A DNA stretch of 64,000 nucleotides. It comes from an uncultured virus (IMG/VR IMGVR_UViG_3300037483_001817). Lineage: Duplodnaviria; Heunggongvirae; Uroviricota; Caudoviricetes. Made by a program: the position numbers and the translations under genes. The DNA lies in the IMG/VR virus record IMGVR_UViG_3300037483_001817; one strand, written 5' to 3'. The notes beneath the pieces were generated by a model, which was not told the origin of the DNA, did no database searches, and saw only the letters and a list, made by a program, of their open reading frames with translations. Below are positions 2,094 to 56,773 of this stretch, one piece after another. The first letter of the stretch is position 1. Each line of letters opens with the position of its first letter.

Positions 2094-2603
2094 ATGACGC
2101 GCAAGAAGACAGGTGCCCAGCTCGATCGAGATGTCGCGAAGGCCCTCAAGAAGCCTGCGTTGACGGTCAAGCGCGCCGACGAGGTCATCCGCGCAGCGCA
2201 GCTGGAGGGCTTCAGCGGCCGATGCGGCCGTGTCGCGATCGCGATCAACAGCATCTTGTTTGACAACAAGGGGCGCTACGTCGTCGCCACGAACCCCGCG
2301 ATCAACAAACACCGCGGGCAGCTGTTCATGGGTCACGTCGTCGTCGAGTGGAAGAAACGGCTGTTCGACGCAACGGGTGTCATCAACGACGAGGACACGA
2401 TCGAGTCTTGGGGAATGGTCGACCACACCGATCCAGACTACGACTACCTCACCGAGGACGAAGCCAACGACGGTCAACTTCACTACATCGACGACCTGTT
2501 CCGAAGTCGCGCAGAGCAAGAGAAGGCCATCGAGGTTGGAACGCGGGGACAGTGCCCGCTGCGCGATGTGGAGAAAGCCCTCCGCGAGGCCATGGAGTCA
2601 TGA
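2094..2603 (+). CDS. Hypothetical protein with N-terminal AQLDREI-type tag
   Basis: Starts MTRKKTGAQLDRDVAKAL. Confidence 0.8.
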   Translation: MTRKKTGAQLDRDVAKALKKPALTVKRADEVIRAAQLEGFSGRCGRVAIAINSILFDNKGRYVVATNPAINKHRGQLFMGHVVVEWKKRLFDATGVINDEDTIESWGMVDHTDPDYDYLTEDEANDGQLHYIDDLFRSRAEQEKAIEVGTRGQCPLRDVEKALREAMES

Positions 2604-3103
2604 TGCGCAAGAAGATCAGCGAAGAGGACGCAGTGAAGATCGCCGAGCTGCGTGCTACCTATGAAGAGACCCGGCGCACCGCAGCAGTCGAACCTACTGC
2701 GGCAACACGGGCCGCCGCGAAGGAGGCATGGGCAGCGCTGGACGCCGCGAGCCCCCGCACGGCGACGAAGACGAGCTTTGCAAGCCGCGCCGGCAAGAGA
2801 CAGGACGCGCAAGGGATCCGCGCTTATCGACAGGGCCGATCGCACGCGACGAAGAAGACCCCAGCCCAGCTCAATCGCGAAATCGCCGCCGCGCTCGCGT
2901 CCGAGGACGAGGGCGTCTTCTACCTCACCGACACCAGGGAGCAGCCGCTGGAACTCGAGTTCTCATCCCGCCCCGCGGCAAAGCGCGCGGCAATGAAACT
3001 CGTACGCGAAGGCGTGCACCCCAGGGTTGAAATCTGGCACCGATGGCACGGCGGTCGCTACATGCAGGGCCTCGCAGACGAGGACGGCTGGTCCGATGTC
3101 TAA
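2600..3103 (+). CDS. Hypothetical protein with internal AQLDREI-type tag
   Basis: ATGA overlap at 2600; contains HATKKTPAQLNREIAAAL (2852-2896). Confidence 0.75.
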   Translation: MMRKKISEEDAVKIAELRATYEETRRTAAVEPTAATRAAAKEAWAALDAASPRTATKTSFASRAGKRQDAQGIRAYRQGRSHATKKTPAQLNREIAAALASEDEGVFYLTDTREQPLELEFSSRPAAKRAAMKLVREGVHPRVEIWHRWHGGRYMQGLADEDGWSDV

Positions 3104-4128
3104 GTTACGCTACGCAAAGTTCACGCTGACCGACGGCACGCGTTTCATCCTGCGCGTCACCAGCGAGTCGCCCACCATCGTCCGAGGCTACGAGGTCAAT
3201 GCCGACGGCGACGAGGTCGTTCCGCCCGGCGCCTGCAACCGGTTGCGCATCGTCGGGCGCGACTTCATCAAGAAGACCGTCGAAATGCGCATGAACAACA
3301 AGTACGCGACGCTTGAGGTCGTACCGCACGAGGCGGGCGCCATCGCGAAGCTTGTGAACATCGTCACCGACACCGCGACGCTCGCCGAAGCGCTGTACCC
3401 AGGCAGCGGCCTTCCGACAATGAACACCGGCGTCTACGAGGGCACACGGACTCCGATCAGAAAGCTCACCGGCCGTGAGGTCGTCACGGTAGCCGGCACG
3501 ACCGCGGGCGCGAAGGTCCTGTCCGACGAGACCTGGATCATCGACCGCTTCGGACCGCTCGGCGCGAGGCAGATCAAGAAGCTGCGCGAGCTCACGAAGG
3601 AAGCATTATGAGCAGAAAACTGAACTACGGCGACTTCTCGCGGACCGGCTACCAGGACTGCGCCAACGTGTTCGACACGAACAACCACAACGACGCCTGG
3701 CACCGCCTCGGCAAGCCGCGTGGGACCGGCGTCGCCATCAAGGTCGTGCGTGAGGCGTGGGGAAACGACGAGGACCAGTACGAGCAATGGCTTTCTCAGG
3801 CCGACGTCGACGAGATTCTCAAAGACGGCCTCGAACTGCGGTCCGCATATCGGGCGTGGCGTGACGCCTGGCAGGGCTGCGCGGAGAGCGCCGTGAAAGC
3901 CGACCTGAAGGAGTGGATCGCGCAAGAAGACGAAGAAGACCGATGAAGTCCAAGGCCGATCCGCACAAGCTCATGATCGAAGGCAAAGGGCCCTCGACAA
4001 TGGGCCGCTGTGCGTGCGGCACCGTCTTTCTGTCGGGTCTCGGCCGCGGCACCGAACGGCAGCAAGTCCGCGACCAGCATACCAGGCACCTCACGAACGT
4101 TGCGTGGATGGAGTCGTTGCCAAAATGA
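3096..4128 (+). CDS. Three hypothetical proteins (3096-3611, 3608-3946, 3943-4128)
   Basis: Chain of overlapping start/stop codons. Confidence 0.65.
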
Positions 4129-4535
4129 CCAAGACCCCTGCCCAACTAGACGCTGAGATTGCCGAAGCGCTCGGCAAGGACCGATCGACGCATCCGAACG
4201 TCATCGAATACGCCGTGCAATACCTTTTCAAGAACAAGACACCAAAGGCTGCCGCCGCGGCCACGGCGAAGAAGCTATCCGGCGGTCCGAATATGTTCTT
4301 GGACGTGCATCCACCCGACGTTGTGAAGATCGACGTGTCCCAGCTCGAAGGCGCTGTTTGGGATCGAATGGTTGACTACACGCTCAAGGGCGTCGCCAGC
4401 TTCAAGGCCGACAAAGCACACTGGGCCCTCGACGGCGCTCTTCAACGCTTCCACCAGCGCCCGAGCCTGCGCGCAGAGCTCAAGCGCCGCGTGATCGAAC
4501 GGCTTGGCCGCGATCCATTCGAGGGCCTCGAATGA
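4125..4535 (+). CDS. Hypothetical protein with N-terminal AQLDREI-type tag
   Basis: ATGA overlap; starts MTKTPAQLDAEIAEAL. Confidence 0.8.
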   Translation: MTKTPAQLDAEIAEALGKDRSTHPNVIEYAVQYLFKNKTPKAAAAATAKKLSGGPNMFLDVHPPDVVKIDVSQLEGAVWDRMVDYTLKGVASFKADKAHWALDGALQRFHQRPSLRAELKRRVIERLGRDPFEGLE

Positions 4536-4975
4536 CAAAGTCCGCCCAACTGGATCGGGAGATCACCGAAGCGCTAAACGGCCCCGCATGGCTGGTCTCT
4601 CAAACGAAAAAGCGCGTCGATCCGAAGTCCTTCCGCGATCTCATCCAGAAGGCCGTCAAGTTCCCCGAGTTCAAGGCACCCTCGAAATACACGTGGGACT
4701 TGATCCGTGGCGTCCCTATCCGCGAGCTGGATCCAGGATCGAAGTTCGACTATGAGACGGATCCCGAGAGTAACGACGAGGAAGCCGGCGAGAATCTCGC
4801 GCGCTACCACCGGGTTGAAGCGCTCCTCGTCCACCAGGGAAAGAAGCCTTGGCCCATTGTCGTGGGTCAAGACGGCGCGGTGATCGACGGCCACCATCGG
4901 CTAGCCGTGCTCTCCGATCATGGAGCCGAAACGGTAGACGTCCTGTGGGTCCGGCCAAAGGGCAAGTACCGGTGA
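4532..4975 (+). CDS. ParB/sulfiredoxin-like domain protein with N-terminal tag
   Basis: PIVVGQDGAVIDGHHRL is the ParB/Srx signature; starts MTKSAQLDREITEAL. Confidence 0.75.
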   Translation: MTKSAQLDREITEALNGPAWLVSQTKKRVDPKSFRDLIQKAVKFPEFKAPSKYTWDLIRGVPIRELDPGSKFDYETDPESNDEEAGENLARYHRVEALLVHQGKKPWPIVVGQDGAVIDGHHRLAVLSDHGAETVDVLWVRPKGKYR

Positions 4976-5364
4976 CCAAGACCGCCGCCCAACTCGACGC
5001 CGAAATCGCCGAGGCCCTGCACGCCAAGGCCGTCCAATCATCAGAGGCCGCCAAGCGCCTGTCCGACGGCGTCTATGACGCCGCCGAGCACCGCGCCGCG
5101 GCCAAGGCACATCGACGCACAGCTCGACTTCACAAAGCTGATCCGACCGGGGGCGACGCTGCGTGGCTGCACGAGCTGGCCGCGATCAATCACCGACAAG
5201 CAGCCACGGCACGTGCCTCTCGAGCACTCACGGCGGCGAACCCGGCACGGACGCAGAAGACCTTCGCCGCGTTCAAGGAGAAGCTCTCCGCCGCCAACGA
5301 GCACACGTCGATGGCCCAGGAGTACGCACGACAGGCGCTCGCCGCGGCAAAAAAGCGCCCATGA
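4972..5364 (+). CDS. Ala/His-rich helical protein with N-terminal tag
   Basis: GTGA overlap; starts (M)TKTAAQLDAEIAEAL. Confidence 0.75.
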   Translation: MTKTAAQLDAEIAEALHAKAVQSSEAAKRLSDGVYDAAEHRAAAKAHRRTARLHKADPTGGDAAWLHELAAINHRQAATARASRALTAANPARTQKTFAAFKEKLSAANEHTSMAQEYARQALAAAKKRP

Positions 5365-5759
5365 GGAATGCAGGGACACCTACGATCTCGATCGCCACGC
5401 CATGGGGCGAAGCAACCGTCACGGTTGAAATCGCGTCGACACCGGCTGAGATCGCGCGTGGTCTCATGTACCGAAATCATCTTCCGTACGATGCCGGGAT
5501 GCTGTTTGTCATGGGCAGCGACGCCGTGTGGTCGTTCTACATGCGAAACACCTTCATCCCACTCGACATGATCTTCATCACGCGTGATTTGACCGTCGCA
5601 GGCATGATTGCCAACGCTGAGCCCTGCACCAACACGCTGCGCAGCATCCACAAGCCGTCGTCGTACGTGCTGGAGGTGAACGGCGGATGGGCCGCTGCCC
5701 ACCAGATCACCGCGGGCGCCAAGGTGCGTCCAGGGCACCAGGACAAGAGGCACGGCTGA
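5361..5759 (+). CDS. DUF192 family protein
   Basis: VEIASTPAEIARGLMYR..GMLFV..FYMRNTFIPLDMIFI..YVLEVNGG matches DUF192. Confidence 0.9.
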   Translation: MRNAGTPTISIATPWGEATVTVEIASTPAEIARGLMYRNHLPYDAGMLFVMGSDAVWSFYMRNTFIPLDMIFITRDLTVAGMIANAEPCTNTLRSIHKPSSYVLEVNGGWAAAHQITAGAKVRPGHQDKRHG

Positions 5760-5761
5760 AC

Positions 5762-6881
5762 ATGCAAGAGCGGCGTTTAGAAGAGCGTGAAGTTTTTGAA
5801 GACGTAACGACTGAATGGGGTCCTGCGTGGGAACAGCCAGCAGGTTCGCGTTACTGGAACGAAGCCGACTGGCGAGCTTACGTCCGACAGCGCAACGCCG
5901 AGTTGAAAGCAAAAGGATCCTATACGCGTGTCCGAAGCGTGCCGGTGAACGAGTAACCTACCGCACAAACATCAAGGCGAGGACGAAGAACACATGAGCG
6001 ATCCGATACGCAACATCATGGGTGACGGCTTTATCGAGCTGCGTTGTTGCGGGCAGATCGCTGGCTTCGTGAACGCGCGCCTGTTCACCCCGGAAACGAA
6101 CGAGCGCTTCTGTGCGATCCAGCAAAGTCTTGGCAAGGCATGGGAAGAAGACGCCGAGGTCAGGACATTGCTGTCAGATCCCGCCTCCTACGGACCCCCG
6201 GCTGACGGCACGCCAATCCTGTTTCCGTGCGGTACATGTGGTGCGCAATTCGCCTGGGCCGGTGGCAGACCCGTCCAGATCTCGTCGACGTGATCCCCGT
6301 GCAGTCCCCTGTCAAATCCCACTATCCAACCAAGTAGACTCCCCATTGATGCCCGCTTGCTCCAACCCTCCGAACCGACCACCACGCGAAGTGATCGATC
6401 GCCTGATCGACTCCATCGCGTGGGCGAAGACCTGCATGCTCCTCGCCGCGGCAACGGCGCCGAAAACGCCCGCGCGAGAGCACGAGCTGGAGAAGCTCCG
6501 TAAAGCCGTCATCGAACCACGACGCGACGTCGACGCTGTCTTCAACCAAGGGAAGTCCCTGCCGCGCGAGCTGCTCATCGAGCTGCGGACGTGCGAGCTG
6601 GCGATCCCGAAGCTTGAGACAGGCGCTGTGCTCCGGCAGACAACCGAAGGCACGCCATGAAAACCCGCGAGCTGCGACGGCAATGCGAACGGTTCACCGC
6701 ACGCGTGATCGCAGAGGGCGCCAACCCTGACGAGCTCGCCGGTCTCATGATCGGATCGCTGATGCGCATCATGCGCGACCGCGGCGTCTCGCGAGAGCTA
6801 TACCTGCAAGCGTGCGCGCTGCTGTGGGACAACAACAACCCGACCGATGTCCCCGTGGACGAAGAAGAGCGGGGGAGCTGA
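5762..6881 (+). CDS. Four small hypothetical proteins (5762-5956, 5994-6293, 6349-6660, 6657-6881)
   Basis: Co-oriented ORFs; 5994-6293 has CC and CxxC pairs. Confidence 0.55.
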
Positions 6882-6884
6882 CCG

Positions 6885-8003
6885 ATGCAGGACCTTTACG
6901 CGGTGCTCGGTGTCGAGCGAGCAGCATCCCAGGCCGACCTCAAGAAGGCGTACCGAAAACTCGCGCAGCAGTACCACCCCGATCACCACCCGGGTGACAA
7001 AAGCGCCGAGGACAAGTTCAAGGAAGCTGCGAACGCCTACCACATCCTCTCGGACGACGAGAAACGTGCCGCCTACGATCGCTGGGGCCACGACGGCCTA
7101 CGCCGCGGCGGCGGTGGAGCTGGTCCAGGCCCCGGCCCAGGAGGATTCGGCGGCGGCTTCGAGAACGTTGAGGATATCTTCTCCGCGTTCGGCGATCTAT
7201 TCGGCGATTTCTTCGCGGGGCGTGGGAGAGCGCGACAGGCAGGGCGCGGCGCCGATCTCAGCGTCGATCTGTCGATCGCGTTTCACGAGGCCGTGTGGGG
7301 TGTGCGAAAGAGCGTCGAGATCACGCGATCGGTTGGCTGCTCGACGTGCCGCGGGACTGGCGCAGCAAACGGCGTTAGACCAGAAGTCTGCCGCGGATGC
7401 CAGGGTAAGGGCCAAGTCACCCACCCCCAGGGTTTCTTCATGGTGCAGACGACGTGCGCGCAGTGTCAGGGCGCTGGCAAAACGATCAAAGATCCCTGCC
7501 GTGACTGCCGTGGTCGCGCGATCCGGTCGGAGACCTCGACGCTGACCGTGACCGTGCCGGCCGGCGTCGACAAAGGGCAGACACTTCGCATCGCCGGCAA
7601 GGGCGAGAGCCTCCCTGGCGGCACCCCGGGCGACCTCTACGTCATACTGCTCGTCGCCGAGGACAAGCGCTTCGAGCGTGACGGCAACGACATTATCAGC
7701 GAGGTGCCCATCAGCTTCTTCCAAGCCGCGCTCGGCGGCGAGATCGAGGTCGACACACTCGACGAGGGTTGTGAAGGAACTGCGATCCTCGAGCTACGGC
7801 CCGGGACACAACCCGGAGACGAGATCGTGCGCCGCGGCCAAGGCATCCAGCACGTGACCGACCACGGTCGCGGCGACCACTACATCCGCTTCTCCATCGA
7901 GATTCCCAAGAAGCTGACCTCCAAGCAGGAGAAACTCCTGCGCGAGTTAGCAGCAGATTTCGGTGAGGATCGATCACGCCCCAAGAAGAAGGCGAAACGG
8001 TGA
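6885..8003 (+). CDS. dnaJ: Molecular chaperone DnaJ (class A, full length)
   Basis: J-domain with HPD, G/F-rich region with DIF/DLF, four CxxCxGxG-type motifs, C-terminal GDLYV and LTSKQEKLL segments. Confidence 0.97.
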   Translation: MQDLYAVLGVERAASQADLKKAYRKLAQQYHPDHHPGDKSAEDKFKEAANAYHILSDDEKRAAYDRWGHDGLRRGGGGAGPGPGPGGFGGGFENVEDIFSAFGDLFGDFFAGRGRARQAGRGADLSVDLSIAFHEAVWGVRKSVEITRSVGCSTCRGTGAANGVRPEVCRGCQGKGQVTHPQGFFMVQTTCAQCQGAGKTIKDPCRDCRGRAIRSETSTLTVTVPAGVDKGQTLRIAGKGESLPGGTPGDLYVILLVAEDKRFERDGNDIISEVPISFFQAALGGEIEVDTLDEGCEGTAILELRPGTQPGDEIVRRGQGIQHVTDHGRGDHYIRFSIEIPKKLTSKQEKLLRELAADFGEDRSRPKKKAKR

Positions 8004-8834
8004 AGAGCGATCCCGCTTGGCCGTCACCGCCAACGCTACGTCGCATGTTGTACTGGGGTGACGGTCTCAGCGGCCGACCTCACGATCACGTGCGTCACGA
8101 CATTCCCGACGTTCATCGCCGCTCGATCACACTCGTCTTGGAGCACGGAAACGACGCGCATCCAGCGACGCAGGCGATGGGTTGGGCGGACTGTCGCATC
8201 TGTGGAGCGAAGCTCGGATCGCGGGATATAACCGCATTCGGTTTCGTCTGGCCCGAGAAGGCCGAACACTATCTCCTCGCGCATCACGTGTGGACACCGG
8301 AGTGCGCGGAGCTTCTTCAAGAAGTCCTGCGCAGAGCACCGCCATGACAGCGCGCGGAATATGCGAACGCTGTGGCGTGACGGTCATCGGATCTCGTGCC
8401 GATCGCCGTGTGTGGGCACACTGCATCTGCGTCGGGTGCCTGCCGCCACCGAAACCATTGCCTCTGATTTACGCTGGCAAGTTTCGTCAAGCGAAGAGGG
8501 ATTCGTGACCTCGCAACCTGACTACTGGATGGACGGGACCACGGTCGTCGAGTTTCGATCTGGCGTCCGCGTGCTGCACATCTCCACCTGCACGGCGCTT
8601 TGTGGCCTGCCAGGTTGTCCCCAGAGCGAGAGCTGCCGGAGCTACTTCATCTATCAGCTACGCTTCCACGGCGACGGATCCCGCGAATGGCGTCGCGCCA
8701 GTTCCGCCGGCATACCTCGCGATCAAGCGATCGCAGAGGCCAGCCGACGCGCCATCGACGCAGAGGCGTTCGCAGATCATCGACCTGAAGATCGCGCCGC
8801 GATCGATCACTGGAACGCGGAGGGATGCCCATGA
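8000..8834 (+). CDS. Three small Cys-containing hypothetical proteins (8000-8347, 8344-8508, 8505-8834)
   Basis: Overlapping start/stop chain, CxxC motifs. Confidence 0.6.
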
Positions 8835-8856
8835 TCGCAGAGCGGCCGGTGAACGC

Positions 8857-9489
8857 GTGAGCCAGGACGAGCGCCGCGCCAAGCGCGCGGGCAAGGTCGT
8901 GCTCCAGCTCTACCGGGACAACGCTTCGTACGTCGCCGAGTCCGCCGAGAGCTTGGGAGTGACCTGCAAGGAGGGCTGTGCGCACTGCTGCATGCTGCCC
9001 GCGACCGCCACGGTCCCCGAGATGGTTCCCATCGTCGAGTACCTCGCGAGCCGTTGCGACTGGGATCGTCGCCGCCCTGCGCTCGAGCGCGAGCTGGCGC
9101 ATCAGCTCTCCGAGTACGCGGGAGTCAACGTCCTCGACGAGCGCGAGCGTGACGCCTTCTTCAAGCGCCAGCTCCCCTGCGCGTTCCTGAAAGACAAGCG
9201 CTGCGAGATCTACGCGGTGAGGCCCGCCGTGTGCCGCTATCACATGGTGGTATCACCGCCTGAGAACTGCGCACTCGGCGCAGGAGATCCCATCGTCGCC
9301 CGCGTTGACTTTCGCAAGATCGAAGCCACGGTCGCGGTCCACGCAGCACAGGCGTTCGGCGAGCTCACGGGAGGCCCGATCGCCCTCGCGTTCGTGCTCG
9401 CGGCCCAGGTCCTCGGCGTCAAGCTCAACGTCGATCGCGAGCTGGTACGTCGCGTGACGAAGGTCAACATCGAGGTGAAACCGTCGTGA
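8857..9489 (+). CDS. YkgJ / CxxCxxCC cysteine-cluster protein
   Basis: CKEGCAHCC ... CAFLKDKRCEIYAVRPAVCR; GTG start at 8857 inferred. Confidence 0.85.
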   Translation: MSQDERRAKRAGKVVLQLYRDNASYVAESAESLGVTCKEGCAHCCMLPATATVPEMVPIVEYLASRCDWDRRRPALERELAHQLSEYAGVNVLDERERDAFFKRQLPCAFLKDKRCEIYAVRPAVCRYHMVVSPPENCALGAGDPIVARVDFRKIEATVAVHAAQAFGELTGGPIALAFVLAAQVLGVKLNVDRELVRRVTKVNIEVKPS

Positions 9490-9637
9490 AACTACTGCGG
9501 CGACTGCTCTGCGCGTTCACGTGGCACTCGTGGGTACCCCTGGTGGTCGAGGCGCGCTTGCTCTGCCAGTGCTCATTCTGCGGGACCCGGCGCTGGATCA
9601 CGCTCTCGTGTTTCGACAAACGATCGTAAGATCTGCC

Positions 9638-10661
9638 ATGACCCTGGAACAAAAAACCCTCGTGGACGCGGCCCTACATCGTTACGGCGCGCATCTCACC
9701 GAAGACAACTTCATTGCGAAAGGTCCCAAAGTGATGAGCGTGCACGTCGATGTACAGAAGGGTCGACTGCGCATGCTCGGAGGAACCTCGGTGCTGGCCA
9801 GCTATCCTGCCGCCCGCATCGAGAAGGGTGTCGGTGACTTCGTCCAGAAGTTCTGGTTTTGGAAACCTGCATGACACGACCGAAGATGCGCGAACGCGCG
9901 CTTGCCGTGACATGTCCGACGTGCGAAGCACCGCCTGGCCAGAGCTGCGGCGGAAACTTCATGGGTCGACCCGACGTTCACCCAAAGCGCATCGTGCTGG
10001 CCGATCGGACGTATCCGCGATGAGAACACTTGCAGTCAAGATCGGAGATCCGTAGGGTGAGCGTCGTGGTCGTGACGACAATCTCCTGCGACGCGGCGAT
10101 CTTGCGCTGCTCGAGCTGCCAGGCAGAAGTCGCCACCGCGTCAGCTGTGTCCGATGTCGACTGCCGGCTGTGCAACGGCACCATGCAGTTCGCTCATCGC
10201 TGCGAGACCGGCTTCTCGCTGCACAAGGACAGCATCTTGATCCGCTGCATCGCCGAGAACAAAGACGGCTGGTGTTGCGAGGCTCGCGGAGGTCGCGACT
10301 TCTGCCCCGCGCATATCCACCTCGCGAATCCAGCCCGCGTCTCGCAGCCGACGCCACGTGCGATCGGCGACCGATGAAACTCCGCGCACGCTGGCACGGT
10401 TCGCCGCCGCGCGTCGGCGACTACCTGGCAAGTCCCACGAGGCCACGCTTCGCGTACCACGTTCGCGGCGTTGCTTGCGTCGACTCGCTCGTGCGCTGGG
10501 ATCCTGTGCAAAAGGCAGAGCTGCGCCGTCTCGCCATCGAAGTCGATCGCGTACCTATCGCTGAGCTGCCAGCTGCGGCACGCGTTCACGCTTGGCGCTG
10601 GGACGCGCGCACGTCGAAAAGAGATCTCACGCACTTACGAGCTGACGCGTTGCCACGCTGA
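9638..10661 (+). CDS. Three hypothetical proteins (9638-9874; ~10057-10377, Cys-rich; 10374-10661)
   Basis: Co-oriented ORFs; starts are approximate. Confidence 0.5.
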
Positions 10662-10702
10662 CCTCGGTCAGTTTCTGGCGGAAGATCGCCCACCAGGGCT
10701 AG

Positions 10703-12404
<1,702 letters not shown>

Positions 12405-12408
<4 letters not shown>

Positions 12409-13934: not shown

Positions 13935-14100
13935 TGAGCTTCTTCCGTCGAGCCGGCGCACTCATTGCGCGTTTCTTCACATCAGCTGCTGATCCGGGTG
14001 CTGCCGTTGGAGAGTTCCAGCTCTACAGCAAGGGCGACGGGGGCGGCGTCACGCAGTTGTTCGGGCAGTCTGATGACGGAACGGTGCATCAGATCACGCC
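12489..14100 (+). repeat. 83-bp direct repeat (12489-12571 and 14018-14100) with 1 mismatch
   Basis: cagctctacagcaagggcgac...cagatcacgcc is identical except GGC/GGA. Confidence 0.95.
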
Positions 14101-44416: not shown

Positions 44417-44592
44417 AGCGTCACGCACTCGGGGCACGGCGCGTAGCCGATGATCCCCAGTCGGTTGGTAACGACGCCGGAGCCGCGGCAGCGCGTGCAC
44501 TTTCGACACCGCTCGATGAACGGATCGGCAGCAGCTTCACGTGCAGCGAGTTCATCCGCGGTTGGTTCTATGGGGGTTCGTTTGTCGCCCAC
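44413..44592 (-). CDS. Small Zn-finger protein missing from the ORF track (~59 aa)
   Basis: Hand translation: (M)GDKRTPIEPTADELAAREAAADPFIERCRKCTRCRGSG...APCPECVTL; it overlaps both neighbours. Confidence 0.6.
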   Translation of the reverse strand: MGDKRTPIEPTADELAAREAAADPFIERCRKCTRCRGSGVVTNRLGIIGYAPCPECVTL

Positions 44593-48494: not shown

Positions 48495-48507
48495 ATAGTT
48501 GAGGGAC

Positions 48508-49851
48508 ATGATGTCGAAGGTTCAAATGTCGGCATGCAGCCCAGGTCAGAAGCTTGTTTCGCTCGGGCTCCCCGGTCGCATCGACCGCGGTGTCGAGTCG
48601 CTCTCGGAGCGGATCGCGAAGCTCGAAGCATTGATCGCGGCGCGATCGACGTCAGCTGCCAAGTGCAAGGAGGCCAAGGTCGAGATCGCGGCGATCTCCG
48701 ATTTGGCCGCGGCGCTGGCCGCGAACGCTCCGGTCGCGATCGGTGTGTCCGGCGGCAAGGATTCCTGCGCCGCCGCCCTTGCGACGATCGAGTACCTGGA
48801 CACGATCGGCCACACCGGTCCGCGCATCCTCGTACACGCCGACCTCGGCGACGAGCGCCCGGAGCTGAGCGTCGAATGGACCGACTCGCTGCCGACGTGT
48901 CAGCGCCTCGCAGACCGGCTCGGCGTCGAGCTGATTGTCGTGCGTCGTGCAGCCGGCGGCATGATGAAGCGCTGGCAGGGCCGCTGGTCGAACAACCGTC
49001 GCCGTTACGCGAATCTCGAATGCGTCAAGGTCATCCTCCCCTGGTCGACGCCCTCGATGCGGTTCTGCACGTCAGAACTCAAGAGTGCGCCGATCGCCGC
49101 CGCGCTCGTCAAGCGGTTTCCTGGTCAGACGATCATTTCGGCCGCTGGCATCCGCCGCGCGGAGAGTCGCCAGCGTAGCGGCGCCAAGACGGCGCAGCGC
49201 AACAAGCGCCTTGAGCACAAGGGCTCCTGCACCACGGGCCTCGACTGGAACCCGATCGCCGAGTGGACCGATCGCGATGTCTATGCGTTCTGCGCAGCGC
49301 GCGGCTTCGATCTCCACGAGGGCTACACGGTTTACGGCATGAGTCGGATCTCGTGTCGGTACTGCATTATGGCGCAGCGTTCGGACCTGGTCGCGTCTAC
49401 GACGTGCGAGGACAACGTACCGGTGTTCCGCACGATGGTCGCGCTGGAGATCGCGTCGACCTTCGCGTTCCAGGGCTCGTCGTGGCTCGCTGACATTGCC
49501 CCGCAGTTGCTCGACGAGGAGACGGCGGCTGCGATCGCCGCCGCTAAGCAGCGTGCTCGTGCACGTGAGCAGATCGAGGCTCGCATCCCGAAGCACTTGC
49601 TTTATACCGAGGGCTGGCCGACGGTCATGCCCACGGCGGACGAGGCGGATCTGTTGGCCAAGGTTCGTCTCGCAGTCGCGGCGTTGCTGGGGCTCGAAGT
49701 GAAATACACCGATGCCGCCTCGATCATCGCCCGTTACGCGGAGCTGATGGCCATGAATGCGGCGAAGGCTGAGGCGCTCGCGAAGAAGACCGCGCGCAAG
49801 GCGCAGAAGATGAAGACGTCGAAGATCTTGTCGAAGGAGGTCGTGTCGTGA
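48508..49851 (+). CDS. PAPS-reductase-family (PP-loop) protein
   Basis: VSGGKDS PP-loop, RFCTSELK, GIRRAES, WNPIAEWT, SRISCRYCI. Confidence 0.9.
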   Translation: MMSKVQMSACSPGQKLVSLGLPGRIDRGVESLSERIAKLEALIAARSTSAAKCKEAKVEIAAISDLAAALAANAPVAIGVSGGKDSCAAALATIEYLDTIGHTGPRILVHADLGDERPELSVEWTDSLPTCQRLADRLGVELIVVRRAAGGMMKRWQGRWSNNRRRYANLECVKVILPWSTPSMRFCTSELKSAPIAAALVKRFPGQTIISAAGIRRAESRQRSGAKTAQRNKRLEHKGSCTTGLDWNPIAEWTDRDVYAFCAARGFDLHEGYTVYGMSRISCRYCIMAQRSDLVASTTCEDNVPVFRTMVALEIASTFAFQGSSWLADIAPQLLDEETAAAIAAAKQRARAREQIEARIPKHLLYTEGWPTVMPTADEADLLAKVRLAVAALLGLEVKYTDAASIIARYAELMAMNAAKAEALAKKTARKAQKMKTSKILSKEVVS

Positions 49852-50588: not shown

Positions 50589-51143
50589 ATGTACCAAACG
50601 GATCGGGCGCGGCCCGTGGATCTTTCCGCTTTCGGAGCTGGCGCCCGTTTCGTGACCGACGACATCGTGATCAGAAAGGTACGTGAGCCCTACGGATGGC
50701 TCGGCAACATGTCGCCGCATCCGGTGGGGCTCTGGCGCACCGCGGAACATGCGTTCCAAGCGCAGCGTTTCCCTGACACCTCCGAGGTCAGGAAGCTGAT
50801 CATGGCTGCGACGAGTCCCATGATGGTGAAGAGGATCGCGAAAGAGCATGCACGCGAGATGATCGTGCAGCCGCGCTCCGAGCAGGACATCTCCAACATG
50901 CGCGTGATCTTGGGCCTGAAGCTGGAACAGCATCCGCTGTTATTGGAGGCCCTGCGCGCGACGGGAAACCGCCGTATCGTGGAGGACTGTACTGCGAGGG
51001 CGAACGAATCTGGTTTGTTCTGGGGCGCTGCGCGGCAGGCGGATGGGACGTGGCACGGTACGAATACGCTGGGCGTGCTGTGGATGGCGCTTCGTCCGGC
51101 AGAGAGGGCCGCAGAGATCGTGGAGCAACTGTCGTTGCTATGA
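50589..51143 (+). CDS. NADAR (YbiA-like) family protein
   Basis: YGWLGNMSPHP..WRTAEHAFQAQRF..KLEQHP..LRATGNRRIVED..FWG..GTNTLGVLWM. Confidence 0.92.
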   Translation: MYQTDRARPVDLSAFGAGARFVTDDIVIRKVREPYGWLGNMSPHPVGLWRTAEHAFQAQRFPDTSEVRKLIMAATSPMMVKRIAKEHAREMIVQPRSEQDISNMRVILGLKLEQHPLLLEALRATGNRRIVEDCTARANESGLFWGAARQADGTWHGTNTLGVLWMALRPAERAAEIVEQLSLL

Positions 51144-51422: not shown

Positions 51423-51923
51423 ATGCCCAAAATCATCACGGCAAAGTTCGAGTCGACCTGTCCAGCTTGCTCCCAAAGGATCAAGCCTGGCAGAGCGATC
51501 GCCTATGAAAAAGGGAAGCCCGCAGTACATGCGGAGTGTGTCGGTCATGAGGCTGGGAACCCGGTCGATCAGCTGTTGATCGAACCTGCGCCAGACGGTG
51601 ACACCTGGATCGAATGCAAAGAATGTGGAGCAGCGAACTGGCTCAGTAAGCTGACCAAGCACGGAGTTGATGCCGGCAAGCTCGGGCATCGTTCGCGATG
51701 TCGCTCACGCCAGCAGTATGTGCCGGGCGCCTGCAAGCCCTCTGCGAAGAGTGCTGCCGAGCTTGATCGTGAGATCGGGGAGTCGCTCCGCGACGAAGAG
51801 CTGCGGAAGTTTGCTGACAACGTCCGCCGCACCGGAATGTCCAAAGGGCGTGACGAGGACGTCGCGGAATCCGTTCGTCGGGGCTTTTTGTCTGTCGATG
51901 ACGCCATGAACACCGACGATTGA
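51423..51923 (+). CDS. Zn-finger hypothetical protein with internal tag
   Basis: CPAC..HAEC and CKEC; contains KSAAELDREIGESL (51747-51788). Confidence 0.75.
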   Translation: MPKIITAKFESTCPACSQRIKPGRAIAYEKGKPAVHAECVGHEAGNPVDQLLIEPAPDGDTWIECKECGAANWLSKLTKHGVDAGKLGHRSRCRSRQQYVPGACKPSAKSAAELDREIGESLRDEELRKFADNVRRTGMSKGRDEDVAESVRRGFLSVDDAMNTDD

Positions 51924-51948
51924 TTCGAACGAAAGGGAGCATAGGCTG

Positions 51949-52458
51949 ATGGCGAACAACGGTACGAAGACGCGTGGCGCGCAGCTCGATCGTGAGATCG
52001 ACGAGGTCCTGCGCATGCGCGAAAAGAAGCAGGGAGCGGCGACGGGCGCGAAGGCCAAAGCCTCCGGCGTTCCGAGTCAGGCGGAGTACGAGCGTCGCGA
52101 GCTTGCAGATGCGCGCAAGCATCTCGACGGGCTTCGTCGGGCACCGCTCTCCGATCGGAAGGAGGCACAGGCGGAGTTCTACAAGGCGATGAGCGAAGAC
52201 CCCAATTTGGTGGCAGAGCGCGTCGGCTGGTTGCTCGCTGGTAACTACGGTTACGGCTCGATGCTCATGGCCAAGCAGGTGCTCGCGAACCCGCGCATGA
52301 ATCGCTCTGCGGCTCTCACGCAGATGGTTGGGGCCTTCGAGTGGATGACTCCCGACGACATGGTGCGTGCGGCGTGGAAGAAGCTCTCCGCAAGCGAGAA
52401 GGCTGCACTGGAGAGTGCGTTGCAGGCGGAAATTGCGAGCGCGCAGAGCGAGGAGTAG
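51949..52458 (+). CDS. Hypothetical protein with N-terminal tag
   Basis: MANNGTKTRGAQLDREIDEVL. Confidence 0.8.
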   Translation: MANNGTKTRGAQLDREIDEVLRMREKKQGAATGAKAKASGVPSQAEYERRELADARKHLDGLRRAPLSDRKEAQAEFYKAMSEDPNLVAERVGWLLAGNYGYGSMLMAKQVLANPRMNRSAALTQMVGAFEWMTPDDMVRAAWKKLSASEKAALESALQAEIASAQSEE

Positions 52459-52460
52459 CC

Positions 52461-52973
52461 GTGCCGCGCACGCCGAAGAAGGCGGCTCCCGCGAAGAAGA
52501 AGACGCCCGCCAAGCAACTCGAGCGCGAGATCGAGGAGACGCTGGCGAAGCGGCCTGACGGCAACGGCGGCATGGAGCGGATCACGCGCGAGCGCGTGCA
52601 TGAGGCGCTCATGGGCGAGCGCATCACACGGCGCGAGCCGATCGAGGTCACGCTCGCAGGCATTCCGAGTGCTTGGGATCTGATCTTCACCGTCGGTAAA
52701 ATGTATGGCGGCGGGCGCTCTGGCCGCATTTTGATCGTTTTGCCCAAGGGCGGCGTCGAGGATCCGTTGGCCGGTCTCGCGTATTCCGTCGAACTCGACC
52801 GGCCCTACGTGCATCACTTCTGGGTCGATTCCGATGCGCGCGGACGCGGGCTCGCGCAGGTCTTGTTCGACGCGTACCGGTCCGAGGTCTCGCCCGAGCT
52901 GGTCGTGGTCGGCCCCTTCACGAAGGCGGGCCGCGCGGCGGCCGAGCGTGCTGGCGCGACGATCGAGGAATAG
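52461..52973 (+). CDS. GNAT-family acetyltransferase-like protein with N-terminal tag
   Basis: VHHFWVDSDARGRGLAQVL (GNAT motif A); KKKTPAKQLEREIEETL. Confidence 0.7.
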   Translation: MPRTPKKAAPAKKKTPAKQLEREIEETLAKRPDGNGGMERITRERVHEALMGERITRREPIEVTLAGIPSAWDLIFTVGKMYGGGRSGRILIVLPKGGVEDPLAGLAYSVELDRPYVHHFWVDSDARGRGLAQVLFDAYRSEVSPELVVVGPFTKAGRAAAERAGATIEE

Positions 52974-53155
52974 ACTTTAGGTGTTGCGCGTTGCGCGGAG
53001 GCCGCGGCTTCGACGCCTCCTTTGATCGTAGCACGAGAGCTGTTTCGCGAAGGCTGCCTCACTTGTGGCGATCGCTCGCTCGAAATTGGGGCTTTGCAGT
53101 TCCACGCAGTAGACTCGAACGCGCGGAACGCGGAACCCCAAGACCACGGAGGCCC

Positions 53156-53485
53156 ATGTCGGTGAACAAGTCCGCCCAGCTTGATCGTGAGATCGCAGAG
53201 GCCCTGGCACGGCACAAGTCTCCGCTGCGCGTGGTCTGTCGCACGCTCGCGTTTGGGATCAAGAGCTGTGACTGGAAGGTCGTGGGTCCGCTGCGGGGCG
53301 CCGAATTTTCGTCGAGAATGAGGCGCGACGAGTCGGCGATCGTCCACCCCTCGACCAAGTCCATCGGTAAGTGGCAGGTCAGCTTCTTCGACGAGCTGGG
53401 GCCCGTCCGAGATTCGCAGCACTCGAGCGTCGAGGACGCGCTCAAGCAGGTCTCGCCGAAGAAGTGGAAGCTGAAGGCGTTCTAG
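53156..53485 (+). CDS. Hypothetical protein with N-terminal tag
   Basis: MSVNKSAQLDREIAEAL. Confidence 0.75.
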   Translation: MSVNKSAQLDREIAEALARHKSPLRVVCRTLAFGIKSCDWKVVGPLRGAEFSSRMRRDESAIVHPSTKSIGKWQVSFFDELGPVRDSQHSSVEDALKQVSPKKWKLKAF

Positions 53486-53520
53486 ATCTGCGCGAGACAC
53501 TATCGCGCTAGCCTCGCGGC

Positions 53521-54075
53521 ATGTCGATTCGTACCTTCGCCCTCGTCCTCGTCTTCGCCACGCTCACCGCCTGCTCTCCCATGCACTACACGCACGGGAT
53601 CCCTAACCTCGCGCAGGTCAACACCAACGTCTGGCGCTCTGGCCAGATCACGACGCAGGAGGGTTGGAACTACATCCGCGCGCTCGCGAACGGTCGACAC
53701 GTGCACGTAATCAAGTTGAACTTTGACACGGAAGGATCCGATGACCTCGCGGCGCGCATGGGCATCGAAGTGCATGTTCTCGCGATTCAACCCGAGGGAG
53801 ATCAAAGCACGTGGGACGATCTGAAGAGTGTGTTCAAAGGGCCGGATCCCCTGCTCGTCGACGAGGCAGAGACACTGCTCGTTGGAGCGACCGCCGACGA
53901 GCTGTGGCTCGTCCACTGCACCCACGGCCAAGATCGCACTGGGTACGTTATCGGCCGCTATCGCGTGTTGCACGACCACTGGACGAAGGATCGTGCGTAC
54001 CAAGAGATGCGTGACCATCATTTCCATCCCGAGCTCCATGGCGTGCATGAAGCGTGGGATAATTTCCGACCGTAG
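53521..54075 (+). CDS. Protein tyrosine / dual-specificity phosphatase, predicted lipoprotein
   Basis: Catalytic loop HCTHGQDRTG; N-terminal signal ending LTAC. Confidence 0.88.
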   Translation: MSIRTFALVLVFATLTACSPMHYTHGIPNLAQVNTNVWRSGQITTQEGWNYIRALANGRHVHVIKLNFDTEGSDDLAARMGIEVHVLAIQPEGDQSTWDDLKSVFKGPDPLLVDEAETLLVGATADELWLVHCTHGQDRTGYVIGRYRVLHDHWTKDRAYQEMRDHHFHPELHGVHEAWDNFRP

Positions 54076-54361
54076 CCACGGGACCGCGGCTCCGTGCCTG
54101 GCGCCGGCCCACGAACGTCAGAGGCGCCTTGTAGCGTCGTGGACATGCATGGAGCGCCTTTACAACCAGAGTCGACGGATTTGATCTACTGGAACGGGCG
54201 CTTCTTCTTGTGGTGCCTTAGTCGCCGTCCTGCGTGGGCGATGAGCAAAGATCTCCGGGGGTGGCCCCGGCAGATTCGTCCGACGGCGAGTGCTTGAGCT
54301 ACGATCGGGAGCTGTCGTGATCGTCGCGTCCAACGACGATAACAACTAGAATCGAGATGCC

Positions 54362-54710
54362 ATGGCCAGCAAGTGGAAGCTCACCGAGCGCATCCCTCTT
54401 TCCACCAAGGCGCTCGATCAGGCGGGGCGCAGCTACGACGTCGAGCTGCGCATGGATGGTGGACACTGGGTCGTCGCGCTGCTCGGCACGCCGGGGAGCT
54501 GGCGCTTCGAGACCATCAAGGACGCACCTGCGTTCCTTGCCATTTCTGGCTTCAGTTGGGGGTGGACCAATGCGGCGCCGAGCGCCGATCATTGCAGAGG
54601 CGAAAGAGATTATCGATGCACGCGAGGGGACGACGGCGACGAAAAAGTCTTCTGCACAGTTAGATCGCGAGATCGCCGATGCGCTGGCTCATCGCCCAGG
54701 GAAAGAATGA
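54362..54710 (+). pseudogene. Tagged hypothetical gene split by a 7-nt tandem duplication (frameshift)
   Basis: gcgccga x2 at 54575-54588; removing one copy joins MASKWKL... to ...TATKKSSAQLDREIADAL. Confidence 0.7.
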
Positions 54711-54726
54711 CCTTGGTACTCGGTAC

Positions 54727-55128
54727 ATGAAGACGGCACGCCAGCTCGATCGCGAAATCGCGAACCACCAGGAGCGCACGCGGCTCGTGGCTCGCGTGCA
54801 GACGCTCCTCGACAAGTGGCAACCCATTCTCGGCGTGGCTCTCAGCGACTTTCGGGTCAAGAAGATGCGGCGGTTTGGATCGCTCAACCTGGCCACGCGT
54901 CGCATGTGGATCAGCCAGGCGCTCGCAACGATGCAGCCAGCGGACCTCGAGTACGTGATCGTACACGAGCTCGTGCACCTCCTCATCGGTGACGAGAAGG
55001 GATCCGGGCACGACGCACGCTTCTACACGTTGATGGATCACTACATGCCGCGCTGGCGACAGCGGCATGCGCGACTGCGCAGCGACGAGGGTATCGTCGC
55101 CTCCAAACTTCCGGGCATGGCGCGTTGA
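54727..55128 (+). CDS. YgjP/DUF45-like (M48/SprT-type) zinc metallopeptidase domain with N-terminal tag
   Basis: MRRFGSL..LEYVIVHELVHL..GHDARFYTLMDHYMPRW; starts MKTARQLDREIAN. Confidence 0.85.
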   Translation: MKTARQLDREIANHQERTRLVARVQTLLDKWQPILGVALSDFRVKKMRRFGSLNLATRRMWISQALATMQPADLEYVIVHELVHLLIGDEKGSGHDARFYTLMDHYMPRWRQRHARLRSDEGIVASKLPGMAR

Positions 55129-55420
55129 TCAGCGTCGCGGCCATAGATTTTCGAGGTCTTCGTACACACCCTCGTAGTAGCGCCGAAAACCACGTTCGTT
55201 TTTGGGCCGGTCGTCAGGTTTGAGAGCGTCATCCACCACGCCCACAAACGTGCGTCGACGTCGGGTCCGACATCTTCGATGAAGGCCGCCACCGCGTCGA
55301 CCGGGTAGCCTTGGTCAAAGCCGCGGCGCACCTGCGTTCGGGCTTGTTCGAGTGCCCTGGTCGACGTCTGCCTCGTTACGGCGAGTATATCAGCTGCGCG
55401 GCGGCCGAGACCTCAGTCCT

Positions 55421-56167
55421 TCACTGGATGAAGATCGTTGCGACTTCCGCGTACGGAACAGCGCTGCCCGTACACGTTCCGTAGGGCGCTGTCTTGTCCG
55501 TACAGGGAGGCGTGTTCGTGCACAGCCCCGTCCAGCTGAAGCCACACGTCGTGGTGACGCCGTTGACCGTGCGCGCGCATTCGACGCGCGGATCTGAGCC
55601 CGCAGGCCAGTTGATGGCGCCACAGGCAAACGTCTTGGGTGAAGCCTGGAACAAGTCGCCATAGAACGCTCCGACGGCGACCGCGTATGTCGCGCGCTCC
55701 GCAGCGGTGGATGTCAACGGCAGGTAGGAATCGTGACGGACCGACACGTTCAAAGTAAAGCCGAAGGCGCTGGTCTTGGACAGCACGCACGCAGTCGTCC
55801 AACGCTTGTTCGCGCTGGTCGGAGCCGACGTGCGCCAGGCCGACGCGACACCCAGCGCTCCGTTGAACGTGAGCGTGCCGCTGGGACCTGTGGCGCTGAC
55901 GCTCTGCCCGCTCGAGACGGCGCAGGCCACGATCGCTCCGAATACGGCTTGGCCGTTGGCCGTCGATACGAGGCTCTGGATGGCGGCGCTGTTACTGTTC
56001 AGGCTTGCCCCGCCGATGGCGCTGGCAGCTGCCTTGGCACTGTTGAGCTGTGCCGCCGAGATCGCCTCGGGCGTGACGACTTCGTCTTCGACTGACGAGA
56101 CGGTCTCGTCGTCGATGGTGCAGTTTGCGAACACGAACAGAAGAAAGAGAACACTGAGCTGCTTCAC
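55421..56167 (-). CDS. Cys-rich secreted lipoprotein of a type common in myxobacteria
   Basis: Signal peptide ending FANC; IVACAV..FNGALGVA..W..RWTTACVLSKT..GAFYGDLF pattern, recognised from memory. Confidence 0.7.
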   Translation of the reverse strand: MKQLSVLFLLFVFANCTIDDETVSSVEDEVVTPEAISAAQLNSAKAAASAIGGASLNSNSAAIQSLVSTANGQAVFGAIVACAVSSGQSVSATGPSGTLTFNGALGVASAWRTSAPTSANKRWTTACVLSKTSAFGFTLNVSVRHDSYLPLTSTAAERATYAVAVGAFYGDLFQASPKTFACGAINWPAGSDPRVECARTVNGVTTTCGFSWTGLCTNTPPCTDKTAPYGTCTGSAVPYAEVATIFIQ

Positions 56168-56389
56168 GGAGACCTCGTTGTGGTTGGAAGCGGAAAGTAT
56201 CACGGGCCGCGGCACTCCCGCGCTAGCTGTTGAAGTGTGGGGTGGGTGCGCAAAGCACCCGTGTTTCGTTCTCTCCGGGATCTGTACACTAACTGCCGAG
56301 CTGGCGTCAGCGGGAGGCGCGGCTGCGCAGTGCTGACGGCGTTGTCTCGACGCAACTTCCCGGTGTGTTCGGCACGCGTTGAAGCGTGA

Positions 56390-56773
56390 TCAGCGTCGAG
56401 ACCGCGAGGTCGCTTCCGCGATCTCGCGGTCGAGCTGAGCTGGACTCTTCTTGCGGGCCGCGTGATGAGTCGTCATGTGTTTCGAGTCCGAGCCATAGCC
56501 AGCAGGAGGTGTCGCGATCATGAGTCGAAGGACGTTATCGAGGCGCTTCAGCTCGGTTGAATTGAGGTCGCGCTCGGCAGCGCGGCGGAGATCATCGAGC
56601 ACTTCACCAAACCAGAACTGACGATCGATGCGAGGTCCGATCTCCCTAGGCACACGCGTCATGTACGGACGCAGCGCTGGATTCGCCGCCGCGAAGGGAC
56701 TGTTGGGAGCTGCCCAACGGGCCGCATGATTCGCGAGCTGCAAGTAGCTGTCGAGCGACTTTTTCTTCGCCAT
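56390..56773 (-). CDS. Hypothetical protein with C-terminal tag
   Basis: Ends HHAARKKSPAQLDREIAEATSRSRR. Confidence 0.8.
   Translation of the reverse strand: MAKKKSLDSYLQLANHAARWAAPNSPFAAANPALRPYMTRVPREIGPRIDRQFWFGEVLDDLRRAAERDLNSTELKRLDNVLRLMIATPPAGYGSDSKHMTTHHAARKKSPAQLDREIAEATSRSRR

Follow-up and report, generated by a model that had tools for sequence, protein, structure and literature searches.

The DNA analyzed here is a stretch of 64,000 nucleotides from the uncultured virus record IMGVR_UViG_3300037483_001817, referred to below as the window. It has a G+C content of 63% and is filled with short, tightly packed open reading frames (ORFs), no tRNA gene being found in its 64 kb, and a Pfam family was detected (E≤1e-3) in only 13 of its 101 ORFs. 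An initial annotation had noticed in 12 of the encoded proteins, which share nothing else, a peptide tag of about 15 amino acids (aa), which was regarded as a candidate targeting or packaging signal. We found the 12 copies where they had been placed, all of them in frame and in ORFs with a coding signature in third-position G+C (GC3), and their alignment yielded the consensus x-x-x-K-K-T-x-A-Q-L-D-R-E-I-A-E-A-L. The position classes also agreed with those first assigned, the tag being N-terminal in 8 of 12 carriers, internal in two (2843 and 51735) and C-terminal in two (54633 and 56461-56399). The tags are grouped in two arrays, one of five copies (2094-5028) and one of seven (51735-56461), both of which lie within operon-like runs of overlapping genes.

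A 21-position profile hidden Markov model (HMM) built from the 12 copies recovered exactly these 12 sites from the six-frame translation of the window, with scores of 28.4-37.7 bits; the next-best match reached 5.7 bits, and no copy was detected between 5.1 and 51.7 kb. Maxima on 20 block-shuffled windows were 2.8-7.2 bits. The GC-matched background, a comparison suggested along with the initial annotation, consisted of 358,547 bases of bacterial loci pre-selected for encoding AQLDREIAE; its AQLDREIAE sites scored 13.0-20.9 bits and everything else at most 8.1 bits, which places the tag far above the GC-matched bacterial level (28.4-37.7 versus ≤20.9 bits). The scores against shuffled and GC-matched sequences rule out chance or low complexity as the origin of the tag.

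At the nucleotide level, a back-translated degenerate DNA pattern allowing up to three mismatches matched 10 sites in the window, all of them tags, and none in 100 dinucleotide shuffles, and neither this pattern nor the six-frame HMM search revealed any out-of-frame or non-coding copy in the window. For the invariant residues L, D, R and E, entropy was 1.1-1.7 bits in the third codon position and 0-0.8 bits in the first two, and Leu was encoded by six different codons across the copies (the expression used for the codon analysis also caught two non-tag window peptides, which leave the columns cited unaffected). This variation in third positions at invariant residues indicates that the peptide is conserved and not the DNA. 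The earlier claim of selection on the peptide therefore holds, synonymous third positions being free to vary and every pattern match being an in-frame tag. A DNA repeat (repetitive extragenic palindrome, CRISPR-like array or recombination site) is ruled out by the third-position entropy and the absence of out-of-frame copies.

A scan beyond the window, likewise proposed at the outset, revealed that the tag is family-wide. A search of 5.8 billion proteins longer than 72 aa with the tag profile returned 1902 at E≤10 among 8000 candidates scored, and every one of the best 120 matches contained the full motif. When 1.84 billion cluster representatives were searched exhaustively, 268 clusters reached E≤0.001, a count that includes a few false positives (P0146, and probably P0218 and P0185, with many matched stretches). 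P0146 consists of repeats of L-Q-C-G-P-A-Q-L-G-R-E-I/M and is unrelated, probably a translated DNA repeat. With a DNA pattern for AQLDREIAEAL we located 40 loci in Joint Genome Institute (JGI) metagenome contigs, harboring 99 tags of at least 18 bits. Densities reach 10 tags per 5.9 kb in locus L006, with 8 per 9.5 kb in L025 and 4 per 2.1 kb in L023, and the lengths of four contigs with such loci range from 202 to 461 kb.

Other collections gave a different picture. The full DNA pattern had no match in 185,579 species genomes, and a shorter pattern produced 26 matches in the same genomes, all single, lacking the basic half of the tag and scoring 13-21 bits. No tag match was obtained in 50,697 phage records (megablast with window positions 1-20000; tblastn with four proteins), and tblastn of the ParB-like, 402-aa and 651-aa proteins of the window against phage records gave no match. 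Plasmid records searched by tblastn with one tagged protein returned noise only (E=8), the ESM Atlas gave no usable match for the conserved 402-aa window protein, and no paper in the literature searched contained tag sequence strings, keywords leading only to background on T4 and SPN3US. The tag is thus confined to one lineage of large elements.

The block conserved across the family is longer than first described and reads R-x-H-A-T-K-K-S-P-A-Q-L-D-R-E-I-A-E-A-L. Internal copies follow R-[SH]-H-A-T-[KR]-K-[ST]-P-A-Q-L-D-R-E-I-A-E-A-L (H in 66, A in 66 and K in 92-97 of 102), and N-terminal copies follow M-[APT]-[RTK]-K-K-[ST]-P-A-Q-L, their Met aligning exactly with the His of the internal copies. 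As these alignments show, the tag is a two-part module, formed by a basic joint (R-x-H-A-T-K-K, or M-x-R/K-K at protein starts) and a predicted N-capped amphipathic helix of around 13 residues. In the helix half, S/T-P-A-Q-L-D-R-E-I-A-E-A-L, S/T-P corresponds to a capping box and the hydrophobic face is made up of L, I, A, A and L; a variable linker rich in Gly, Pro, Lys and Arg follows A-L. I/V-x-E is present in 8 of the 12 window copies. The basic patch plus amphipathic helix predicted from the residue pattern was recovered in the AlphaFold2 (AF2) model of the ParB-like carrier, where the helix spans residues 3-16 with a predicted local distance difference test score (pLDDT) of 55-65, versus 75-90 for the core. 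In the zincin carrier the tag-like residues run straight into the first helix of the fold (AF2 model).

The basic half also occurs alone. After masking the tags in 233 proteins, H-[AS]-T-[KR] was found 72 times versus 1.8 ± 1.4 expected (maximum of 9 in 500 shuffles), in the context R-x-H-A-T-K/R-K/R and typically between modules. Proteins P0054, P0018, P0050, P0101 and others carry up to three such lone R-x-H-A-T-K/R-K joints each, at apparent domain boundaries, and in P0054 two lone H-A-T joints flank the helix of the tag. A search of PDB sequences with the profile gave as sole resemblance designed coiled-coil heptads (REIAKALR, CC-Hept and CC-Type2 peptides), and complex prediction with four copies of a 41-residue tag segment, run without controls, scored 0.01, a value that speaks neither for nor against an assembly. 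Several known ligand types were considered and rejected: a phosphothreonine ligand of FHA domains, which require phosphothreonine, by the presence of Ser at position -3 in 75 of 102 copies; a beta-clamp or PIP-box motif, by a spacing mismatch with what is generally known of these motifs; and a secretion signal, by the hydrophilic character of the tag.

The placement of the tag was analyzed further in a pattern-based sample of 78 distinct carrier ORFs (at least 60 aa, duplicates dropped, start codons assigned by a simple rule), in which it was N-terminal in 53, internal in 20 and C-terminal in 5. The carriers are small (median 182 aa, maximum 377 aa), mostly of one or two modules. When 226 single-tag proteins were cut at the tag and parts of at least 35 aa were kept, the resulting 342 flanking parts fell into 152 families that were almost purely "upstream" or "downstream", and one upstream family with 24 members was paired with 12 different downstream families. 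Carrier 2 of the window (numbering as in Table 1) and its syntenic counterpart in L006 are 75% identical from S/A-H-A-T-K-K to the end, with unrelated N-terminal modules; conversely, P0015 and P0024 are 88% identical through the end of the tag and unrelated beyond it. As the homology between carriers breaks exactly at the tag, the tag is a junction for module shuffling, and with 152 flank families whose homology stops at it on either side the description of a portable tag on unrelated carriers was borne out. A particular arrangement was seen in P0244 (256 aa), in which an additional module stands upstream of the ParB-like carrier. This module ends in H-A-T-K-K-T-P-A-A-Q-L-D, a partial tag, and the usual tagged start comes directly after it, as if two adjacent tagged genes had been fused or read through.

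Untagged homologs of the cargo, which the initial annotation had suggested looking for, exist for the C-terminal module of P0019 and for the YgjP-like zincin. The former is found as an untagged stand-alone ORF of about 90 aa in cultured phages (E from 1e-9 to 3e-14), including Stenotrophomonas phages CM1 and RAS14, Xanthomonas phage Xoo-sp13, Bacillus phage pW2, RB43 (beside frd.1) and others. Relatives of the zincin were found at 12 loci of IMG/VR with 28-41% identity and tag scores of at most 4.5 bits; they have an N-terminal extension of about 100 aa where the tag sits in the proteins studied here, and the ORF length is 239-289 aa in 11 of the 12.

The carriers of the window are presented in Table 1. 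Among the functional labels given to them initially, two were supported by structural models. The ParB/Srx fold of carrier 4 was recovered by Foldseek with its AF2 model (pLDDT 78), the top match being the N-domain of pNOB8 ParB (5k5d_B, E 2.5e-4), followed by sulfiredoxins and other ParBs; residues G120, H122 and R123 are invariant across 21 sequences, which fits a ParB/Srx motif of the G-x-x-R type, and all 20 homologs of this protein are tagged. The HExxH peptidase label of carrier 11 was confirmed by a YgjP-like match (E 9.3e-23) and a minimal zincin fold. Its AF2 model (pLDDT 87.1) contains helix 4-35, strands 41-45, 51-54 and 59-63 and helix 71-87 carrying HExxH, matching the minimal zincin architecture, in which a long N-terminal helix precedes three strands and the helix with HExxH; in Foldseek the model matched 4jiu (TM-scores 0.66/0.82) and 4qhi_A (E 1.9e-4), and its fold is nearest to selecase, abylysin and jannalysin, with Wss1 and SprT as the next closest. 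The two remaining labels were only partly upheld, the GNAT assignment of carrier 8 resting at a weak Acetyltransf_10 match (E 1.1e-3) below the Pfam cut-off, and the zinc finger of carrier 6 at a weak Zn-ribbon match.

Further details concern single carriers. Carrier 5 starts with a GTG that overlaps the preceding stop codon, the tag of carrier 8 is preceded by a basic leader of 12 residues, and that of carrier 9 is the copy nearest to the consensus, with no mismatch to the DNA pattern. A tandem duplication of 7 bp at 54575-54588, where one heptamer occurs twice, shifts the frame of carrier 10; the intact homologs P0096 and P0108 are 111 aa long and carry the tag at the C-terminus, and the break could reflect a pseudogene, a strain variant or an assembly error. 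Two untagged genes of the second array, 53521-54075 and 55421-56215, encode lipoprotein-type signal peptides with lipoboxes L-T-A-C and F-A-N-C, the product of 53521-54075 also showing a weak match to tyrosine or dual-specificity phosphatases.

Table 1. Tag carriers of the window, DnaJ genes and nucleotide/modification genes. Positions refer to the window unless a locus (L) is named.
Feature	Position	Strand	Tag position	Place of tag	HMM score (bits)	Tag sequence	Remarks
Carrier 1, 169-aa orphan	2094..2603	+	2094-2156	N-terminal	35.0	MTRKKTGAQLDRDVAKAL	Tagged orthologs in L023, L006
Carrier 2, 167-aa two-module protein	2600..3103	+	2843-2905	Internal	34.8	SHATKKTPAQLNREIAAAL	
Carrier 3, 136-aa orphan	4125..4535	+	4125-4181	N-terminal	33.7		
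Carrier 4, 147-aa ParB/Srx-fold protein	4532..4975	+	4532-4585	N-terminal			
Carrier 5, 130-aa helical orphan	4972..5364	+	4972-5028	N-terminal	31.8		Ortholog in L006
Carrier 6, 166-aa Zn-ribbon-like protein	51423..51923	+	51735-51797	Internal	29.5		phrog_1581
Carrier 7, 169-aa orphan	51949..52458	+	51949-52020	N-terminal	33.5		
Carrier 8, 172-aa GNAT-like protein (weak)	52455..52973	+	52491-52553		28.4		Start codon inferred
Carrier 9, 109-aa orphan	53156..53485	+	53156-53215	N-terminal	34.8		Orthologs in L031, L020, L024, L007
Carrier 10, broken frame	54362..54710	+	54633-54695	C-terminal	37.7		Homologous to 111-aa C-terminally tagged proteins
Carrier 11, 133-aa minimal zincin (YgjP-like, HExxH) peptidase	54727..55128	+	54727-54780	Tag-like N-terminus	31.6		
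Carrier 12, 127-aa orphan	56390..56773	-	56399-56461	C-terminal	37.0	HHAARKKSPAQLDREIAEAT	
DnaJ	6885-8003; L010:6922-8130; L021:5312-6415; L006:3-173						
Nucleotide/modification gene set	626-1195, 16407-16919, 48499-49851, 50589-51143, 62508-63347						

Across the wider family, Pfam scans (42 of the first 120 proteins, then 150 of the 185 remaining proteins of at least 60 aa) assigned a family to 14 of 42 (E≤0.01), 5 of 150 (E≤1e-4) and 7 of 88 (E≤0.01) carriers. Named cargo comprises ParB/Srx, zincin, SprT-like (P0178), retropepsin-like (P0119 and P0144), GNAT, Sigma70_r4, HTH_8, DUF6496 and DUF5661 proteins, and a tagged PARP-type ADP-ribosyltransferase (ART) encoded at L006:4211-4675, which also matches the Pfam family "ART in polyvalent proteins". 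For the mini-zincin, 139 homologs at E≤1e-5 were identified among 153 candidates; among the 120 listed, HExxH is present in 118 and a tag-like start of at least 15 bits in 113, and at least 15 are on contigs of ≥100 kb, the longest of them 502 kb. The mini-zincin is a core gene of the element family. The named cargo resembles the hub domains of polyvalent proteins, and also the internal cargo of the T4 head.

The genes around the tag arrays are conserved as well. Tag loci are syntenic with the window in the order cpYpsA, tag array, two small genes, DnaJ and a CxxCxxCC protein, at 47-86% identity, and radical SAM and other genes are also common to the window and related contigs. The DnaJ found downstream of the tag arrays is a full-length type I protein (J domain, Zn finger and C-terminal domains) with 62-79% identity, for which phage records returned generic DnaJ only, at 47% identity or less. 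Genes related to nucleotides and modification (cpYpsA of the SLOG superfamily, DUF488, PAPS-reductase-like (phrog_424), NADAR and radical SAM) are spread along the window, and several of them are kept in related contigs. The contigs of the element family measure 200-530 kb, with examples of 333, 461, 502 and 532 kb, and carry orphan-rich genes in strand blocks; among the PHROG matches are tail-fibre families in L026, a DnaB-like helicase with an intein in L038, and integrases. In L038, on a 333-kb relative, the DnaB/KaiC-like helicase gene (12723-15763) is split by a Hint (intein) domain, and a 1214-aa methyltransferase-glycosyltransferase fusion and 2-oxoglutarate-Fe(II) oxygenases are encoded nearby. 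Two adjacent paralogs of the window, at 11979-13934 (651 aa) and 13931-15061 (376 aa), both match phrog_5596, and the 651-aa protein matched a pectate-lyase-like phage tailspike cluster in the ESM Atlas (score 0.82, a lead only); these paralogs may be receptor-binding proteins. A 255-aa HEAT-repeat protein is encoded at 43742-44509 (HEAT_2, 28.7 bits, just over the Pfam cut-off), and as helical-repeat proteins often bind peptides, it is a candidate reader of the tag.

As one peptide is found on hundreds of unrelated modules, exposed and conserved on all faces of its helix, within one lineage, the simplest account is that of a label recognized by a single partner. Our most probable explanation, held tentatively, is that it is a lineage-specific docking or address tag by which one partner gathers the cargo, the likeliest destination being the particle, for co-delivery, and that the H-A-T joints are possible cut sites. 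The tag would be set before, between or behind freely shuffled small protein modules, and one conserved partner encoded by the element would bind the exposed helix and gather the varied cargo together. By analogy with the capsid-targeting sequence (CTS) of T4 and with polyvalent proteins, this cargo would be loaded into the particle, and effector-type enzymes (ParB/Srx nuclease-like proteins, ADP-ribosyltransferase, acetyltransferase, zincin peptidase and small DNA binders) would enter the next cell with the DNA. Multi-module carriers would be cut at H-A-T-K/R joints, possibly by the tagged mini-zincin, a step that we infer from sequence statistics only. The element is probably a very large phage, as hinted at by the contig size, the orphan-rich strand blocks, the PHROG matches, the tailspike lead, the presence of a cargo module in jumbo and T4-like phages, and the absence of the tag from reference cellular genomes.

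The closest precedent is that of T4. Its CTS has the sequence MKTYQEFIAE (bioRxiv 10.1101/2021.01.19.427310); according to PMC5694885, it comprises 10-20 residues, occurs only at the N-terminus and is cleaved off by the prohead protease. The CTS of internal proteins I-III (IPI-III) and Alt resembles the tag in being a short portable peptide on unrelated cargo that starts with M-K-T and ends with I-A-E. The comparison extends to the cargo: T4 Alt is an ADP-ribosyltransferase, and a PARP-like ART is tagged here. Unlike the T4 CTS, the tag is far more conserved and marks a shuffling junction, and no T4-like head genes were seen in the sequence examined.

Several observations weigh against a tag for packaging into a viral particle. 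In contrast to the T4 CTS it is also internal and C-terminal, longer and bipartite, and its conservation on all faces of the helix goes far beyond that of known targeting helices. Capsid, portal, terminase, scaffold or head protease genes were found neither in the window (101 ORFs with Pfam, 45 with PHROGs) nor among ORFs of at least 110 aa in the related 20-kb loci (132 ORFs from six loci with Pfam; 85 of these plus 13 window ORFs with PHROGs), these searches covering the 64-kb window (its contig being at least 288,627 bp long) and eight related 20-kb stretches. As regards the viral nature of the element, three pattern scans of IMG/VR contigs gave 0, 5 and 0 matches, the five being chance matches and none a true tag, and the 402-aa window protein has no relative in IMG/VR. 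Most of the cargo has no annotation, so its "effector" flavour depends on a minority of the carriers. The Glu of I-A-E, the would-be P1 residue, is present in 67 of 98 copies of the wider set, below the neighbouring residues, which argues mildly against cleavage after I-A-E as the main constraint. The profile-based lists, in which 233 proteins carry 74 tags at the N-terminus, 144 inside and 18 at the C-terminus, are biased to internal copies, as the profile rewards the H-A-T-K-K positions. Finally, the cultured-phage homologs of the P0019 module are small, untagged and not marked as virion proteins in their records, and the frd.1 neighbourhood in RB43 is one that we take to be an early-gene region.

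Two other readings of the module we regard as lesser, rather doubtful possibilities. The module might serve mainly as a handle for cutting by a protease of the element, the first candidate being the 133-aa mini-zincin, so as to free modules or remove pro-segments. This would fit the 40-fold enrichment (72 versus 1.8) of H-[AS]-T-[KR] joints without the helix at module boundaries, three of them in P0054, as well as the alignment of internal H|A-T-K-K with N-terminal M|A-R-K-K, by which a cut after His would leave the same end as Met removal. Peptidases are present among the carriers (zincin, SprT-like P0178, retropepsin-like P0119 and P0144), the zincin itself is conserved (139 homologs) with a fold like that of selecase, abylysin and jannalysin, and metallopeptidase (MPTase) domains have been proposed to process polyvalent proteins (PMC5512222). 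Nevertheless, a cut would release no second module in 53 of 78 carriers, which consist of a single module that opens with the tag, and a 13-residue helix conserved on all faces exceeds what a protease site needs; to our knowledge, moreover, no protease substrate has been established for YgjP-like proteins. Address and processing functions could coexist. On the other hand, the helix might dock to a hub of the host or the element other than the capsid. Such a hub could be the machinery for replication or transcription, a compartment resembling a phage nucleus or a condensate, or a chaperone system made up of host DnaK and the DnaJ encoded by the element. The position independence of the tag suits a short linear docking motif, DNA-related proteins are frequent among the carriers (ParB/Srx, Sigma70_r4, HTH, SprT/YgjP-like), a full-length DnaJ lies just downstream of the arrays in the window, L006, L010 and L021/L022, and the module homologs of cultured phages are small, untagged and stand-alone, the RB43 copy being located beside frd.1. 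The linkage to DnaJ may, however, be mere synteny of related genomes, and the acidic helix fits poorly the preference of DnaK and DnaJ clients, which is for hydrophobic and basic residues.

Two further readings appear still less probable. That the tag is a recombination joint, a standard in-frame connector for module swaps whose peptide is a stable, inert linker helix, seems improbable to us, despite homology breakpoints lying exactly at the module on either side, flank families paired combinatorially and P0244 being fusion-like at a partial tag. Synonymous sites are near saturation, so that DNA identity is too low to be the feature maintained, an inert linker is unlikely to hold around 12 consecutive residues near-invariant in at least 268 clusters, and N-terminal tags are found on single-module proteins that have no upstream partner. 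Self-association, in which the helices of different carriers would bundle into one mixed complex, we consider very improbable: the hydrophobic face L, I, A, A, L and the designed coiled-coil heptads that are the only resemblance among solved structures speak for it, but the helix comprises only about 1.5 heptads, too short for a stable coiled coil alone, and its conserved charged face suggests a specific reader.

The proposed address tag also invites comparison with three other systems. According to Iyer et al. 2017 (PMC5512222), the polyvalent proteins of phages and conjugative elements, which enter the cell together with the DNA, have MPTase, ParB and ART as their hub domains, and their cleavage into units by the MPTase has been proposed. 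Polyvalent proteins resemble the carriers in combining early activities (zincin MPTase, ParB/Srx, ART and DNA binders) and in their combinatorial pairing; they differ in holding 2-15 domains in one giant polypeptide, whereas the carriers are mostly small, of one or two modules, the latter joined by an invariant peptide. We found no universal connector described for polyvalent proteins in that paper, the text of which does not contain the word "linker".

Encapsulation peptides of bacterial microcompartments (BMC) and cargo-loading peptides of encapsulins are short and amphipathic, terminal or interdomain, attached via a variable linker, and dock enzymes to a shell. The tag shares with the BMC encapsulation peptides an amphipathic helix joined to the cargo via a variable linker. 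Those peptides are poorly conserved, in contrast to the near-invariant tag, and no shell gene accompanies it, BMC-domain and encapsulin genes being absent from the 101 window ORFs. In polymorphic toxins, conserved peptides (VENN in CdiA, PxxxxDPxGL in Rhs) mark the point of exchange of variable modules. Like them, the tag is the exact point of module exchange and its genes are in arrays; unlike in the toxins, modules vary on both sides of it and the carriers are mostly small, of cytoplasmic type and without secretion domains. Short portable targeting peptides are thus already known from T4, microcompartments and encapsulins; the present instance is set apart by position independence, the bipartite build, the near-invariance, the role as breakpoint of combinatorial exchange and its presence in very large elements of a family not described before. 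This family is widespread in sediment and soil assemblies, and its tag is absent from the reference genome, IMG/VR and phage collections searched. The sequencing runs listed as containing the sequence are DNA runs of sediment metagenomes, two of which are possible sources, with no RNA run among those listed.

A more specific version of the address-tag proposal, unlikely when taken as a whole, is a genome-wide universal connector by which more than 150 module families are assembled into single- and multi-module proteins via one invariant cassette of about 20 residues, in which the helix would be a zip code for one receptor and the joint a cut site of the mini-zincin; effectors would be co-sorted, delivered with the DNA and released, making the system a distributed, cleavable counterpart of polyvalent proteins. 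If one partner reads the helix, hundreds of orphan proteins, a large block of viral "dark matter", would become assignable to one pathway by the tag alone, and the reader should be recoverable with a 20-residue peptide. The tag and its reader, possibly with a protease, would then form a small, autonomous and position-independent pair useful for loading or co-localizing proteins. If the address-tag proposal is true, targeting by a portable label, shown so far for T4, would be extended to position-independent, combinatorial use in large environmental elements, and would be linked to the way in which polyvalent proteins bring many activities into the cell at invasion.

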